A DNA stretch of 64,000 bases, from NCBI RefSeq assembly GCF_050320075.1, contig NZ_CP190018.1; one strand, 5' to 3'. The notes beneath the pieces were generated by a model, which was given only the letters and a program-made list of their open reading frames with translations, made no database searches and was not told the origin of the DNA. Source of the stretch: Escherichia coli (lineage in GTDB: Bacteria; Pseudomonadota; Gammaproteobacteria; Enterobacterales; Enterobacteriaceae). This document shows, piece by piece, positions 6,790 through 11,865 of the stretch. The number at the start of each line of letters is the position of its first letter. Position 1 is the first letter of the stretch. The position numbers were made by a program, and so were the translations under genes.

Positions 6790-7092
6790 AAAGTTTTTTT
6801 TCGAAAGAACTGTTCACACTGTTCACCTTTCTGTTTTCTCCTTTTATTTCAGTTTGATAGGTGGTGAATAATGGGTGAATGGTGAACATTCGATTCTTCA
6901 CCTCCGGCATTCTGCCGGTGTGACTCATACCGGTGATTAATCCCCCGTACTGAAATCACACAGGGAGAAAAAAAGTTTTTTTTGATTTGATTGTTCACAC
7001 TGTTCACCTTTCATTTTTCTCTTTTAATTTCAGTGTGATAACGGGTGAATATACGGTGAAGGGTGAACAGTGGATTGTTCACCTTCGGGGAA
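6790..7092. repeat. P4 crr-like cis replication region: two ~120-bp direct repeats with TGTTCACC/GGTGAACA octamers
   Basis: Unit 1 ~6790-6900 and unit 2 ~6970-7092 share 'aaagtttttttt...ttgttcacactgttcaccttt...ttcagt(t/g)tgata...gggtgaa...ggtgaaca'; octamer is the P4 alpha-binding iteron. Confidence 0.65.
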
Positions 7093-7100
7093 TTCAGGGA

Positions 7101-7126
7101 TAAAAAAAGACCGGCAGATGCCGGTC
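7101..7126 (-). terminator. Rho-independent terminator after alpha
   Basis: Hairpin gaccggca-gatg-ccggtc followed by T-run on minus strand, just downstream of alpha stop. Confidence 0.6.
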
Positions 7127-7142
7127 AGATGAGTCATGATGG

Positions 7143-9476
7143 TCAGGTTGTTGCAGGGTCGTCACATTTTGGCAGCCAGTCGCCGTAGCTTTCCTCTTTC
7201 AGCGTCAGGTTGGTCTGTATCCCCTGTTTGGTATGGCGCTTCTCGTAATTCAGTCCGTATTCCTTCAGCATCACCGGCAGCCCCAGCCCGAACATTTTCA
7301 GACTGAGTACATTCCGGTAGCCGTTTGCCTCCATGTAGGCCAGATAGGCGTGATAGAGGTATTTACGGTAATTACGCGGGATGATACTGGCGTTCCCCAT
7401 ATACATGCCGCTGGTCTGCGGCAGGGTTTCCAGATAGCCGATAAAATCAAACGTCGGGTCGGCATCCCGTTTGATGTTCAGCGCCTCGTCTGAGTTCTGC
7501 TGGGACTGAAGCAGTGACCGGGCGAGCATCGGGTCGCTGAACTTCTGCATCAGGTGACGCACGATGACCGCCAGCTCGCGGGTGATTTTGTCCTTAAGCT
7601 GCGGGTCGCGCTCCTGCGGGGCTATCTGTTCCGGGAAGTGAATAATCACCCGCCGGCGTGACACGCCGCCGCTGCGGTCGGTGAAGCGCATCGGGTTATT
7701 GTTCACGGCCAGAATTACCGCCGGGATATGCGTGGAGTATGCATCCCGGTATTTCGGGTCAACGGACACCGCATCGCCGCCGGTGATGGCCTTGAGTCCG
7801 GCACCGTCGCCGCTCCATTTTTCCTGGTCCGGCAGGCGTATCAGTGAGAAGCCAGTTAACGCGGCACGTTCACGCGGGGATTCCAGCGTCTCGATGGTGG
7901 CCGACGTGGCGTTATCCTCCCCGGCCAGCAGGGTGGCTATTTCGGCCATGATACTTTTGCCGCTGCCGCCGGGACCGGTCACCTCCAGAAAGAGCTGCCA
8001 GTCGTAGCGGTTTGCCAGCACCATAAACAGTGCGGCCAGAATCACGTCGCGTTTTTCCGCACGGCCACCGGCGGCACGGTCAAGCCAGCGCCAGAACGCG
8101 GGGGCGTGGGTCTCCAGCGTTTCACCGTCCACCGGCGGGGTGAAATCCACATCGCACAGGGTGCGCATCCAGTGTGACGGACTGTGCGGGTGGAACGTGC
8201 CGTTCTGCGTGTCGAGCACGCCGTTACGAAAGCCAATCAGGCGGCGGGAGGGGGCTTCCTGCTGCGGAATAATCAGCTTCAGGGTGTCCACCACGGAGGC
8301 CACCTTCCCGGAGGAGAACGGCGCGCGCAGACGCTGAAACAGCCCGGCCACATCCCGGGCAAAGTCCTGTGGTGGCAGCACCTTCCAGACACCATTTTCA
8401 TAACGGGACAGAAGCTGGCCGTTGGCATCGACCGCGAGCGCCTCGCCGTAATGCTCATAGATACGCATGGCCTTTTCGCTGGTACTCATGGCGGAAAACT
8501 CCGCTTCGCTCATGGTGTCGAACGGGCTTTCAGCCGGTGGCCGGATGGCATCATAAATGGCCTTACGGGTGGCTTCCCCGCCGTACTGCGTGAAGGCATC
8601 ATTCCAGTCACCGAAGACCGGCGGCAGGGCAACAACGCCCTCACACGCATCTGCGGCTGCGGCGGCTTTTTTCTGGCCGTCACCGCTGAGGTCACGGTCT
8701 GCGGCAAGGACAATCTGACAGGCCGGATGCTTCTGCCGGGCAAGGCTGGCCAGAGAAAGGAGGTTCACGGAAGAAAGCGCCACCATCACCGTTTCACCGG
8801 TCAGGTGATGTACGGTAAGTGCGGTCGCGTATCCCTCCGCTATCCACAGACGTTTTCCGGCCTGATTCTGTCCTTCAAGGGTGTGACAGGTGCCCCTGAC
8901 CTGTCCGCCTTTCAGGGTGCGCTTACGGCCGTCAGCACTGATTAACTGAAGGTTAACCAGTTCGCCGCTGTCGTCATACAGTGGCACCACAAGGTCACCG
9001 GCACGCCAGCTCACGCCACCGGCTCTGTGTGTGCCGGTCAGCATCCGGCATTCCCGGCCGGGAAAGCCCTTGCGGGTCAGGTAGGCGTTACCGGTTCCGG
9101 GACGGGTTTTCGCCATCAGGGTTTGTGCCAGTGCGGCGGCGTTCTTCCGGGCAGCGTCTGTTTCAGCACCGGCGGCAGCCGTCACTGCCGGGTCAGCCGG
9201 GGGCAGGCTGCCGGTCACGGCAGCCACCTTTGCTGCCGCGTCGGACGGGGAAACACCAAACACCTTTTCAACCAGTTTCAGGCCGTCACCGGCACCACAC
9301 TGATTGCAGTACCAGGTGCCGCGCCCCTCCCTGTCATCAAAACGGAAGCGGTCACTCCCGCCACAGACCGGACAGGGCTGATGACGGTTTTTCAGCACCT
9401 GAATCCCCAGCGCCGGGAGAATACGCGGCCAGTGGCCGAGCGCATGGCTGACGGTGGCGGTTACGTTCATTTTCAT
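7143..9476 (-). CDS. P4 alpha-type primase/helicase replication protein
   Basis: 777 aa; N-terminal zinc-binding 'CPVCGG...CNQCG' primase region; Walker A 'GPGGSGKS'. Confidence 0.85.
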   Translation of the reverse strand: MKMNVTATVSHALGHWPRILPALGIQVLKNRHQPCPVCGGSDRFRFDDREGRGTWYCNQCGAGDGLKLVEKVFGVSPSDAAAKVAAVTGSLPPADPAVTAAAGAETDAARKNAAALAQTLMAKTRPGTGNAYLTRKGFPGRECRMLTGTHRAGGVSWRAGDLVVPLYDDSGELVNLQLISADGRKRTLKGGQVRGTCHTLEGQNQAGKRLWIAEGYATALTVHHLTGETVMVALSSVNLLSLASLARQKHPACQIVLAADRDLSGDGQKKAAAAADACEGVVALPPVFGDWNDAFTQYGGEATRKAIYDAIRPPAESPFDTMSEAEFSAMSTSEKAMRIYEHYGEALAVDANGQLLSRYENGVWKVLPPQDFARDVAGLFQRLRAPFSSGKVASVVDTLKLIIPQQEAPSRRLIGFRNGVLDTQNGTFHPHSPSHWMRTLCDVDFTPPVDGETLETHAPAFWRWLDRAAGGRAEKRDVILAALFMVLANRYDWQLFLEVTGPGGSGKSIMAEIATLLAGEDNATSATIETLESPRERAALTGFSLIRLPDQEKWSGDGAGLKAITGGDAVSVDPKYRDAYSTHIPAVILAVNNNPMRFTDRSGGVSRRRVIIHFPEQIAPQERDPQLKDKITRELAVIVRHLMQKFSDPMLARSLLQSQQNSDEALNIKRDADPTFDFIGYLETLPQTSGMYMGNASIIPRNYRKYLYHAYLAYMEANGYRNVLSLKMFGLGLPVMLKEYGLNYEKRHTKQGIQTNLTLKEESYGDWLPKCDDPATT

Positions 9477-9490
9477 GGTGTTGTTCTCCT

Positions 9491-9811
9491 TCAGTGCAGT
9501 ACCGGCGCTTTTATGTGACGGGCACAGAGTTCATCCATCACAACCAGCCCGAGAAAGGACAGCGACGGCGCGGCCTTCAGGGGGCCGGATTCCATTAAAT
9601 CTTCCAGCAGGGCACAGGCTATCTGACGCCCTTTTTCCTCACCGTGCTGGCGCAGATAAAAGCCTTCCAGCTCAGCGGCGATGGCCGCCTCCAGTGATTC
9701 AAGGGTGAGATGCGGGTAGCGGTGCTGACGTTCGCACACGGTCAGCCAGGCACAGGCGACAGCGCGACGGTAAAGGGCTGCGCGTAAGACGGGCGGTAAG
9801 GGTGTTTTCAT
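9491..9811 (-). CDS. P4 orf106-like hypothetical protein
   Basis: 106-aa ORF between alpha and orf151-like gene, matching P4 gene order and size. Confidence 0.5.
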
Positions 9812-9946
9812 TTGTTTTCCTCCCTGTGACAGATGACTGCATTCCGTGCCGGTTGCATTAACTGATAAGGCATATCTGCGTCTCCTGAAGACGTGCGTAT
9901 CCCTGCGCGAATACGCACATTTAATTTTTCGGGTGTCGTTTTTTAA

Positions 9947-10682: not shown

Positions 10683-10872
10683 GGGACACCTCCACCACCG
10701 GCAGACGGGCAGCAAGGGAGAGCACATAGTCACGGACAAGGGAACGGCGGGCGCTGCGTTCATCACCGGCGACGGTGCGAAGCATACAGATACGGGGATG
10801 ACGATCTGCGCGACGGACAGCCGCAAACACAAAGACAAATTCAGGGTGTGAGGTGGTAAGGGTTGTAGCCAT
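10675..10872 (-). CDS. Small P4 early-region protein (65 aa), hypothetical
   Basis: ATG with strong 'aaggagg' SD; terminal part of over-called 184-aa ORF. Confidence 0.4.
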
Positions 10873-10875
10873 GAT

Positions 10876-11140
10876 GGCAGCCTCCTTGAAGTAACAGTTA
10901 CAGCTACCACTGGAGTTCCTACGCTCATGGGTGGTAGCCCGGACGGGGGTAGGAATACCGGCCTTCAAGGAAACCGGCCAGCCCGAAGGCTGCCCCGCCC
11001 GGACCACCATTATCTGACAGAGGCTACGGTTTAAAAACCACAGCCAGAAAAACAGGTGTGCCGAAGCAACGACGTAAAAAAAGACGCATGGCGCGTCATA
11101 TGTCGCCTTGAAGTAACTCGGGTTCCTACGCCCGGCTGCC
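10876..11140 (-). promoter_or_regulatory. P4-type immunity/early control region with repeated 'cttgaagtaac...gttcctacgc' elements (seqA/seqC-like)
   Basis: Two copies of 'ccttgaagtaac(N)gttcctacgc' at ~10876-10920 and ~11107-11140 flanking GC-rich structured sequence; matches logic of P4 RNA-based immunity (cI RNA with seqA/B/C). Confidence 0.35.
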
Positions 11141-11225
11141 GATTTTGCGGCAGCGGAAAAACTATATCCGCAAATGCCGGAAAAAGGCAAGCCAGAAAAA
11201 GGGACTTTTTGCAGAACAGGCATCA

Positions 11226-11492
11226 TCATGCGTCATACCCCCGTTGGCGTCCGGCAATGCGGCCGGCCATCCATGCGGTGACTTCAGAGTGCAGCCAGGC
11301 CACATTTTTACCGCCAAGACTCACCTGCGGCGGAAATTCCCCCTTACGGATGAGTTCATAGATGGTCGAGCGTGACAGGCCGCACAGGTGCATCACTTCC
11401 GGCAGACGTAAAAAACGCTCCTGCGTGATGTCCGGCAGCGGCATCAGTGGCGTCACAGGGGCGGGAGACGGGGAAGAAAAAACAGCTTGCAT
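11226..11492 (-). CDS. AlpA/Vis-family excisionase-like transcriptional regulator
   Basis: 88-aa ORF with '[28 protein letters not shown]' HTH typical of AlpA/P4 Vis. Confidence 0.7.
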
Positions 11493-11769
11493 CGGGCTAC
11501 CTCGTTAATGTCCATACAGCACCGGATAAGTCCGTCCGGCTTCTGGTAGCGCTTTATTTTGTGAATATTTTCAGCAGACGCAACAGGGGGAATTTGTTCC
11601 GGCAACCTTACAATGGCTGTGTGTTTTTTATCCATCTGGACTGGAAGGGTCTCAAAGGGTTCTGAAGGACCTGGAATTTTTTATAGTGAAATACAAATTG
11701 TTTTTTCTTATTTATTTCAGTGAATTAATAAAAATAAACAGTGATAAACAGCATAAAAAGCCCATCAAC

Positions 11770-11865
11770 GGGTGAACAGTGGTGAACAGACGGTGAACAG
11801 TCATTACTGCGATTGTTCACCCTTTAACTTACTGTATTACTTATCTTTTTTCTTATGGTGAACAG
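11770..11865. repeat. Iteron cluster (GGTGAACA x5 plus inverted copy) - candidate P4 ori1
   Basis: 'gggtgaacagtggtgaacagacggtgaacag...ttgttcacc...ggtgaacagaggtgaacag'. Confidence 0.6.

Follow-up and report, generated by a model that had tools for sequence, protein, structure and literature searches.

Two octamer clusters as the probable bipartite replication origin of an integrated P4-type satellite in Escherichia coli

A P4-type satellite carrying two octamer clusters

A 64-kb stretch of Escherichia coli DNA (hereafter the window) contains two clusters of a short octamer, one on each side of a gene for a phage-type primase-helicase, which raises the question of whether an integrated element here carries the cis-acting parts of a replication origin and, if so, of which kind. 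The evidence set out below makes it very probable that ori1 and crr, the two halves of the replication origin of an integrated P4-type satellite, are what these clusters represent.

The octamer TGTTCACC/GGTGAACA occurs in exact form 13 times in the window, against a mean of 2.12 in 100 shuffled versions (maximum 6), none of which reached 13. Eleven of these copies fall in two clusters, the first at 6820–7083 (n = 5, starting at 6820, 6881, 7001, 7062 and 7076) and the second at 11771–11874 (n = 6, starting at 11771, 11781, 11792, 11814 in inverted orientation, 11857 and 11867), and the other two, at 35420 and 43501, correspond to chance expectation. For five octamers within 264 bp, a Poisson estimate is ~4e-13. 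The octamer count that a preliminary description of this DNA had proposed as a check is in its favor.

The satellite extends over ~10.3 kb, from ~6634 to 16895, the two positions beyond which alignments with the same satellite in other strains do not extend. Window positions 6787–14085 align to P4 (X51522) 4291–11624 with 97.6% identity over a stretch that spans crr, alpha, cnr, ori, sid, delta and psu, and the P4 homology begins exactly at the crr boundary, 6787. The core set of P4-like satellites comprises int, psu, delta, sid, alpA/vis, epsilon and alpha (Moura de Sousa & Rocha 2021; PMC8628076), and all seven components are co-localized here in P4 order: the integrase, Psu, Ogr/Delta, a Sid-position ORF, an HTH protein (Vis) and the primase are listed in the PGAP table, and the epsilon/derepression protein was recognized by a Pfam match. 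The P4 right end abuts a cos core, GGCGAGGCGGGGAAAGCAC, on the plus strand at 14086–14104, which represents a 19-nt cohesive end, and the P4 left end opens with the same 19 nt.

Beyond this stretch the element differs from P4. Its integrase/att module targets thrW, whereas that of P4 targets leuX; the tyrosine integrase (15480–16685, minus strand) is unlike the leuX-type module and is followed by att, a 47-bp copy of the thrW 3' end (16849–16895). No thrW att repeat of at least 14 nt was found near 6.6–6.8 kb, and the left side holds only a degenerate thrW-like remnant (~6651–6685) together with arm-type CTATACACA repeats. The gop-beta-cII cargo of P4 is replaced by a HEPN-domain gene. The prophage forms part of a tandem run of mobile elements, and it could be silenced or defective elsewhere.

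Anatomy of crr and ori1

The first cluster lies within a region (6788–7087) that aligns to P4 4291–4590, annotated 'crr', and consists of two 120-bp direct repeats (6788–6907 and 6968–7087) with a 60-bp spacer between them. A repeat search returned essentially the same units (6785–6907 and 6966–7088; 123 nt, 80% identical, starts 181 bp apart), so that the octamer-rich direct repeats of about 120 bp described earlier near alpha are confirmed by both repeat search and octamer count. The AT content of crr is 61%, compared with 50% across the element. Each repeat carries five type I iterons in both orientations, as in P4 crr. In repeat 1 (6811–6902) these are TGTTCACA at 6811 (+), TGTTCACC at 6820 (+), TATTCACC at 6863 (-), TGTTCACC at 6881 (-) and TCTTCACC at 6895 (+), which correspond one-for-one to P4 4314, 4323, 4366, 4384 and 4398. 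In repeat 2 (6992–7083) they are TGTTCACA at 6992 (+), TGTTCACC at 7001 (+), TATTCACC at 7044 (-), and TGTTCACC at 7062 (-) and 7076 (+), corresponding likewise to P4 4494, 4503, 4546, 4564 and 4578. The one-mismatch forms TGTTCACA and TATTCACC are accordingly present in both repeats and TCTTCACC in repeat 1 only. Past crr follow the rho-independent terminator of alpha (7102–7126, minus strand; identical to P4 4604–4628, 'talpha') and then the alpha stop at 7143. With alpha on the minus strand (7143–9476), crr therefore lies beyond its stop codon and terminator, i.e., just downstream of the gene, as had been claimed.

The second cluster, the ori1 array (11771–11874), contains six exact type I octamers, read on the plus strand as GGTGAACA at 11771, 11781, 11792, 11857 and 11867 and as TGTTCACC at 11814. 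It equals P4 9310–9413 ('ori type 1 repeat'), which sits inside the annotated 'origin of DNA replication', and it is placed between vis (P_LL) and sid, as expected of a P4-type ori1. The preliminary description counted five octamers and an inverted copy here, but ended the cluster at 11865 and so clipped the sixth octamer; the true end is 11874. With distances of 10, 11, 22, 43 and 10 bp, successive iterons are set roughly whole helical turns apart. Iterons 4 and 5 are separated by a 35-bp stretch with 80% AT (11822–11856), which is probably the unwinding element. The minimal P4 ori1 reportedly includes an AT-rich part, to which 11822–11856 corresponds.

In total there are 16 type I octamers, 11 exact and five with one mismatch, ten of them in crr. 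The P4 records X51522 and X05623 annotate 'crr (cis required region for replication)', 'crr 120bp direct repeat', 'ori type 1 repeat' and 'origin of DNA replication' at the aligned coordinates, and each of the 16 octamers annotated in P4 has its counterpart here, with order, strand, sequence and spacing preserved. Relative to P4 there are ~11 substitutions in crr and two in ori1, every one of them outside the octamers. The satellite thus shares with P4 its octamers, the 120-bp crr repeats and their location past the alpha terminator, the phased array of six ori1 iterons together with the 35-bp AT-rich stretch, and the 4.7-kb separation of ori1 and crr. The comparison of the satellite with itself and with P4, also proposed at the outset, recovers the direct repeat as well as the P4 identity, and the assignment to the P4 ori1/crr organization stands.

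The placement of the two fields could also be read in another way, namely that they serve mainly as regulatory or copy-control sites for alpha (handcuffing or autoregulatory) and not as a replication start. The ori1 iterons do lie in a divergent promoter region (P_LL/P_sid) and crr directly after the alpha terminator, iteron fields of plasmids often play both roles, and Cnr, the product of a neighboring gene, is said to raise alpha binding to iteron sites and to inhibit replication. Such a role is, however, compatible with that of an origin, the region is designated origin in the P4 record, and initiation sites are usually built in this way, with helical phasing next to an AT-rich stretch; we regard a mainly regulatory function as very improbable and retain the assignment as a bipartite origin. 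The same anatomy, i.e., helix-phased initiator words beside an AT-rich element, is found in the iteron plasmid origins (R6K gamma/alpha/beta, P1, F, pSC101), which also share a distant second iteron field communicating with the origin through the initiator. They differ in that the satellite initiator is a fused primase, helicase and origin binder, and in that the distal field, crr, would be required and not merely inhibitory.

The initiator, the proposed mechanism and conservation of the sites

The cognate proteins are encoded between the two clusters, full length and without frameshift. Alpha, the primase-helicase initiator (777 aa), has its origin-binding domain at the C-terminus and is identical to P4 alpha at 771 of 776 positions (99%). 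Pfam matches in it are Zn_Ribbon_Prim, Toprim, D5_N, DUF5906 and Pox_D5. Residues 671–770 match PDB 1KA8, the solved origin-binding domain of P4 alpha (E = 1e-63), so that primase, SF3 helicase and C-terminal winged-helix domain are all represented. The adjacent cnr gene (P4 ORF106; 9491–9811, minus strand) encodes the copy-number regulator acting on alpha and is identical to its P4 counterpart at all 106 residues. P4 reportedly replicates without need of the host DnaA or DnaG, a further difference from the iteron plasmid origins. A second P4 origin, ori2, is reported inside alpha, and it is probably present in the alpha gene of this satellite as well, because the alpha DNA is ~98% identical to that of P4.

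The origin repeats are bound by alpha via the winged-helix domain, and unwinding and priming follow (PMC4234260). For the mechanistic details we draw on GenBank annotation and on secondary citations (PMC4234260, PMC3936717, PMC5009727). In the proposed scheme alpha would act as primase, helicase and origin-binding protein in one chain, and its C-terminal winged-helix domain would recognize TGTTCACC, the 'type I iterons'. Alpha bound to the six helically phased ori1 iterons would open the adjacent 35-bp AT-rich stretch, load itself as the helicase and prime synthesis. The crr, located 4.7 kb from ori1 past the alpha terminator, would be needed in cis and may work via an alpha-mediated contact with ori1, and binding of Cnr to alpha would raise the affinity for iterons and thereby limit copy number. 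Iteron binding, looping, unwinding and actual replication of this satellite are all inferred from P4 biochemistry, and its replication competence, which the preliminary description had also favored, is suggested by the intactness of the parts.

The close relationship to P4 allows for a different interpretation of the sites, i.e., as a relic of recent divergence from P4 in a satellite that no longer replicates, for example because its regulation, its excision or another site such as ori2 is defective. A comparison of just these two sequences, which are 97.6% identical, is hardly informative about selection; the left att has degenerated, so that excision could be impaired; and PGAP reports an 'ash family' pseudogene at 10897–11229, overlapping the P4 cI region, which we take to encode the cI immunity RNA and not a protein. 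Comparisons across further loci bear on this. Among loci whose alpha is at least 99% identical, 37 of 38 have an upstream cluster, 150 bp long, of at least four exact octamers, as do 36 of 40 loci whose alpha is 84–86% identical; at least three octamers within 350 bp downstream of alpha were found in 28/29 and 29/41 loci of the two groups, respectively. Outside the clusters, these loci contain only 15 octamers in 638 kb. In the 84–86% clade the non-coding surroundings have diverged and the distance from ori to alpha differs by ~700 bp, and retention of the octamers under these circumstances points to purifying selection acting on them. The loss of octamers from related satellites, named beforehand as the result that would speak against the assignment, was thus not seen. 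Furthermore, the same satellite is present at 98–99% identity in many unrelated strains, which indicates recent mobility, and both alpha and cnr are free of frameshifts. A relic is therefore very improbable, and the clusters are best regarded as a maintained ori1/crr pair.

Still more distant alpha homologues were retrieved by exact-protein look-up, mostly on contigs too short to include both origin parts. One of them, with 44% identity, is followed directly by about ten repeats of the GTCTACAT type; at least one distant homologue thus keeps an iteron field with a different word.

The octamer clusters belong to what is already established about a widespread element, and the finding is correct but ordinary. 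It establishes that the prophage carries a complete, P4-identical set of replicon parts, and it has annotation value, since the element occurs in about 1,000 of the 5,426 complete E. coli genomes, where PGAP annotates neither crr nor ori. It also helps to judge how likely the satellite, with its HEPN cargo gene, is to be mobile.

The zone of type 2 repeats beside ori1

Next to ori1, the zone corresponding to the P4 'ori type 2 repeats' (11634–11683, plus strand) is represented by another allele, with ~10-bp phased repeats GGACTGGAAG, GGTCTCAAAG, GGTTCTGAAG and GACCTGGAAT. From the P4 literature we take this zone to lie outside the minimal origin, and it may serve P_LL as a sensor of helper Cox. 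A TGT-N12-ACA dyad upstream of P_LL (11595–11612) is conserved with P4 and is presumably the Delta/Ogr activator site. P2 Cox boxes are reportedly located at P4 P_LL.

The type 2 repeats of P4 agree with the consensus published for P2 Cox boxes, TTAAA(G/C)NC(A/C) (PMC3936717): P4 has two strict boxes, at 9180 and 9190, and a third repeat, TTAAAGCA, falls short of it by one base. In window 11600–11770, searched for at least three copies spaced 10–11 bp apart, there is no box of this consensus. The likeness to the P2 Cox boxes, which concerns this neighboring zone only, consists in the place upstream of P_LL and in the ~10-bp phased direct repeats; the difference is that the window zone instead bears a resemblance to the stretches to which Cox binds in phage WPhi, namely the attP arm and the Pe-Pc region. 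This WPhi-like replacement of the type 2 repeats may be a new observation. Many other alleles occupy the same spot among P4-like satellites. Vis was considered as the binder of the variable zone and ruled out, since an identical Vis sequence co-occurs with different zone alleles.

Searches for the source of the window-type zone gave little. A 65-nt blastn query against a phage collection returned chance matches only, and a 17-mer scan of viral contigs found 12 P4-like contexts, five unrelated ones and none in P2-like phages. The window-type zone is present in 237 genomes and a WPhi-type Pe-Pc/cox segment in 260 (union 479); 18 genomes contain both, compared with 11.4 expected, a weak enrichment that is not convincing given clonal sampling. 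The pattern CTNN[AT]A[AG]GG clusters at the WPhi Pe-Pc region and attP arm, but has only two copies in the window zone, and it was rejected; it is post hoc and circular, having been derived from both the WPhi and the window sequences.

It is possible, though we hold this only tentatively, that the type 2 repeat part of the P4 'origin' is a swappable helper-sensing cassette and not a replication element. WPhi-type Cox has been reported not to activate P4. If the cassette reading were true, the present satellite would be woken by the Cox of WPhi-type helpers rather than by P2 Cox, and the zone alleles would form a code pairing satellites with helper immunity types. Should the zone decide which helper Cox derepresses the satellite, it would provide a sequence-readable predictor of satellite–helper pairing, and this side observation could outweigh the origin finding in value.

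Octamer clusters and the P4 origin

The octamer TGTTCACC (complement GGTGAACA), the type 1 repeat of ori1 and of the cis replication region crr, has 13 occurrences across the 64 kb of the window in an octamer search, against a mean of 2.12 and a maximum of 6 in dinucleotide-preserving shuffles of the window. Five copies cluster in 6820–7083 and six in 11771–11874; the remaining two, at 35420 and 43501, equal the number that chance predicts, and the Poisson estimate for five octamers in 264 bp is ~4e-13. The repeat finder recovers a 123-nt direct repeat (6785–6907 and 6966–7088; 80% identical, 181 bp from start to start), and allowing one mismatch adds five octamers, all within these crr direct repeats, for a total of 16 sites. 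The counts and the repeat finder thus bear out the preliminary description, which had reported octamer-rich clusters at two places and octamer-carrying direct repeats of ~120 bp. The second cluster is present as described, but ends at 11874 and not at 11865, a boundary that drops the last octamer.

In a megablast of window 1–16000 against phage records, 6787–14085 corresponds to 4291–11624 of P4 (X51522 / NC_001609) with 97.6% identity. The P4 record annotates 4291–4590 as 'crr (cis required region for replication)', with two copies of a 'crr 120bp direct repeat' holding five 'ori type 1 repeat' features each, followed by the 'talpha' terminator and then alpha and ORF106. The 'origin of DNA replication' is annotated at 9086–9809, and contains six 'ori type 1 repeat' (9310–9413) and three 'ori type 2 repeat' features (9176–9205). 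According to pairwise alignments and the octamer map, 16 of 16 type 1 sites agree between window and P4 in sequence, strand, order and spacing, and the substitutions (~11 in crr, 2 in the ori1 array) all lie between octamers. The bipartite ori1/crr organisation claimed earlier is therefore upheld, the aligned P4 segments being those annotated as crr and origin. By sequence, the clusters are the P4 ori1/crr origin itself, on a P4-type satellite with another integrase and cargo. The window has every defining feature of that origin that is open to in silico testing, and the origin is an ordinary one that is already known.

The proteins that act on the iterons are intact in the satellite. The primase-helicase initiator alpha (7143–9476, minus strand, 777 aa) is identical to P4 alpha at 771/776 residues and comprises a primase zinc ribbon, Toprim, D5_N/DUF5906 helicase and, at the C-terminus, Pox_D5; residues 671–770 match 1KA8, the solved P4 origin-binding domain. 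The copy-number regulator Cnr (ORF106, 9491–9811) and Vis (ORF88) are identical to their P4 counterparts at 106/106 and 86/88 residues, respectively.

Jointly, the P4 replication papers of Flensburg & Calendar 1987, Ziegelin et al. 1993, 1995 and 1997, Terzano et al. 1994 and Tocchetti et al. 1999 reportedly show that crr is needed in cis and acts from a distance, that ori and crr are both bound by alpha, and that Cnr makes alpha bind the iterons with higher affinity and keeps copy number in check. Minimal P4 ori1 reportedly consists, in the same body of work, of six iterons and a 35-bp AT-rich stretch. The window has this same anatomy, with ori1 iteron spacings of 10, 11, 22, 43 and 10 bp, near multiples of the helical turn, and an AT content of 80% in 11822–11856. 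For P4 it is established, by the GenBank annotation and by PMC4234260 (with reference to Ziegelin & Lanka 1995 and to Yeo et al. 2002), that alpha binds the origin repeats via its C-terminal winged-helix domain, followed by unwinding and priming. Binding, looping and replication would be predicted for the present satellite.

Conservation of the iterons

By the preliminary description's own criterion, its reading would fall if the octamers were not conserved in related satellites; a scan of IMG/VR with alpha shows that this is not the case. Among 80 loci, about half have an alpha with at least 99% identity and about half one with 84–86%. At least four exact octamers form a 150-bp cluster upstream of alpha in 37 of 38 loci of the former group (six octamers in 31) and in 36 of 40 of the latter (five octamers in 27), and at least three octamers lie within 350 bp past the alpha stop in 28/29 and 29/41 loci, respectively. 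Outside the clusters, these loci contain just 15 octamers in the other 638 kb, and in multiple alignments the octamers vary little or not at all, unlike their flanks. In the 84–86% clade (loci L043–L083), ori1 lies ~1.65–1.75 kb upstream of alpha, compared with ~2.35–2.45 kb in the P4 type, and the cluster is kept although this distance is ~700 bp shorter; the two groups thus differ in the genes between alpha and ori but share both iteron fields.

TGTTCACC is absent from the contigs, all short, of distant alpha homologues (59%, 44% and 40% identity). On the contig with the 44% homologue (L085), the 650 bp past the gene (2549–3202) contain about ten repeats of the GTCTACAT type, some in each orientation, L084 has GTGACCAGT/AGTCAC words (2624–2868), and L087, with the 40% homologue, GTGAAyA-type words (7371–8402). 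The iteron word seems to drift with the initiator, with the architecture and the position after the gene retained.

Of 5,426 complete E. coli genomes, 1,077 contain the crr sequence and 1,006 the ori1 segment, always on the chromosome and nearly always without an annotated feature beneath. The crr query matches three places in the NZ_CP123240 chromosome, which suggests that the strain has three P4-like satellites whose iterons are similar, and cross-talk or incompatibility among them through common alpha/iteron specificity is possible.

A variable repeat zone beside ori1

The stretch of P4 between ori1 and the late promoter P_LL contains three 10-bp 'type 2 repeats' (CCACTTAAAG / TCATTTAAAG / CCACTTAAAG), which agree with the P2 cox-box consensus, the third copy being one base short. 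PMC3936717 gives this consensus as TTAAA(G/C)NC(A/C) with a spacing of 10–11 bp, and reports P2 Cox bound upstream of P4 P_LL, derepressing the satellite. In the window, a different 10-bp-phased cassette, GGACTGGAAG GGTCTCAAAG GGTTCTGAAG GACCTGGAAT, replaces the type 2 repeats: the zone at 11634–11683 (45–50 bp) is about half identical to P4, against 97–100% in its flanks. At least three zone alleles occur among satellites with 99–100% identical alpha, and the 85% clade has yet other 10–11 bp repeat arrays at this position. One identical Vis is found with different alleles, hence the zone does not track Vis.

The helper phage WPhi has a Cox that, as reported in PMC5009727, does not activate P4 and recognises a different 12-nt repeat. 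Zones were compared with helpers by the best local alignment over the whole helper genome, with 200 shuffled queries for the pairs window zone–WPhi and P4 zone–P2. The window zone aligns with WPhi 22649–22675, within the attP arm immediately 3' of int (score 33, next 23; shuffles 0/200), which is the position of the annotated Cox site in P2; the alignment reads GGACTGGAAGGG-CTACAAA--GTTCTGA, and the zone is also similar to WPhi Pe-Pc. The P4 zone, as a positive control, finds the Pe-Pc Cox operator of P2 (score 31, next 25; shuffles 3/200), whereas the reciprocal pairs, window zone with P2 (score 21) and P4 zone with WPhi (score 24), give background only. Across the 5,426 genomes, the window-type allele and a WPhi-type cox are only weakly enriched together (18 genomes vs 11.4 expected). 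The cox-box allele swap is therefore a partly tested lead of modest interest: the zone may be a swappable cassette that sets helper-Cox specificity. The literature searched contains no account of it as such a sensor.

Satellite structure and neighbours at thrW

The window is essentially identical to NZ_CP123240 (E. coli YZLc1-3 chromosome) starting at 3,959,582. Other strains carry the same satellite at 98–99% identity with matches ending at window 6634 and 16895, which bounds the element at ~10.3 kb. Its order on the plus strand is a degenerate thrW-like att, crr, alpha, cnr, orf151, epsilon, the cI region, vis, ori1, sid, delta, psu, the cos core GGCGAGGCGGGGAAAGCAC (14086–14104), HEPN-domain cargo, a non-P4 tyrosine integrase (15480–16685) and a thrW 3' copy. 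The P4 homology starts exactly at the crr boundary, so the integrase/att module has been exchanged and the replicon kept; integrase and cargo both differ from those of P4. In the P4 cargo hotspot between cos and int, gop-beta-cII is replaced by a gene for a 464-aa HEPN-domain protein (PGAP call; 14123–15517, minus strand) whose coding sequence shares 38 nt with the integrase gene. Searches of Pfam and PADLOC gave no match to this protein, a candidate uncharacterised defence gene product. CTATACACA words recur on both sides of the satellite, with two copies close to its left end (6727–6747) and one direct and one inverted copy beside int (16688–16740), and are probably arm-type sites bound by the integrase of the non-P4 module.

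The satellite is part of a tandem array at thrW, composed of the intact tRNA-Thr(CGU) gene (55717–55792), a P22-like prophage that reaches it (~16.9–55.7 kb), a 47-bp copy of the thrW 3' end (16849–16895) and the P4-like satellite. To the left there are a degenerate thrW-like stretch (~6651–6685) and an Sf-type integrase fragment (6434–6637), so the left att of the satellite has decayed, which may impair excision. Further left lies a defence island (257–6384) with an AbiEi/AbiEii toxin-antitoxin pair (257–1967), a 1069-aa reverse transcriptase (2262–5471) that gave no Pfam match and matches PADLOC DRT RT_UG5-nitrilase end to end, and then an 'ash family' ORF and a broken HTH gene (5608–6384); taken together, these genes resemble what is left of another P4-like element.
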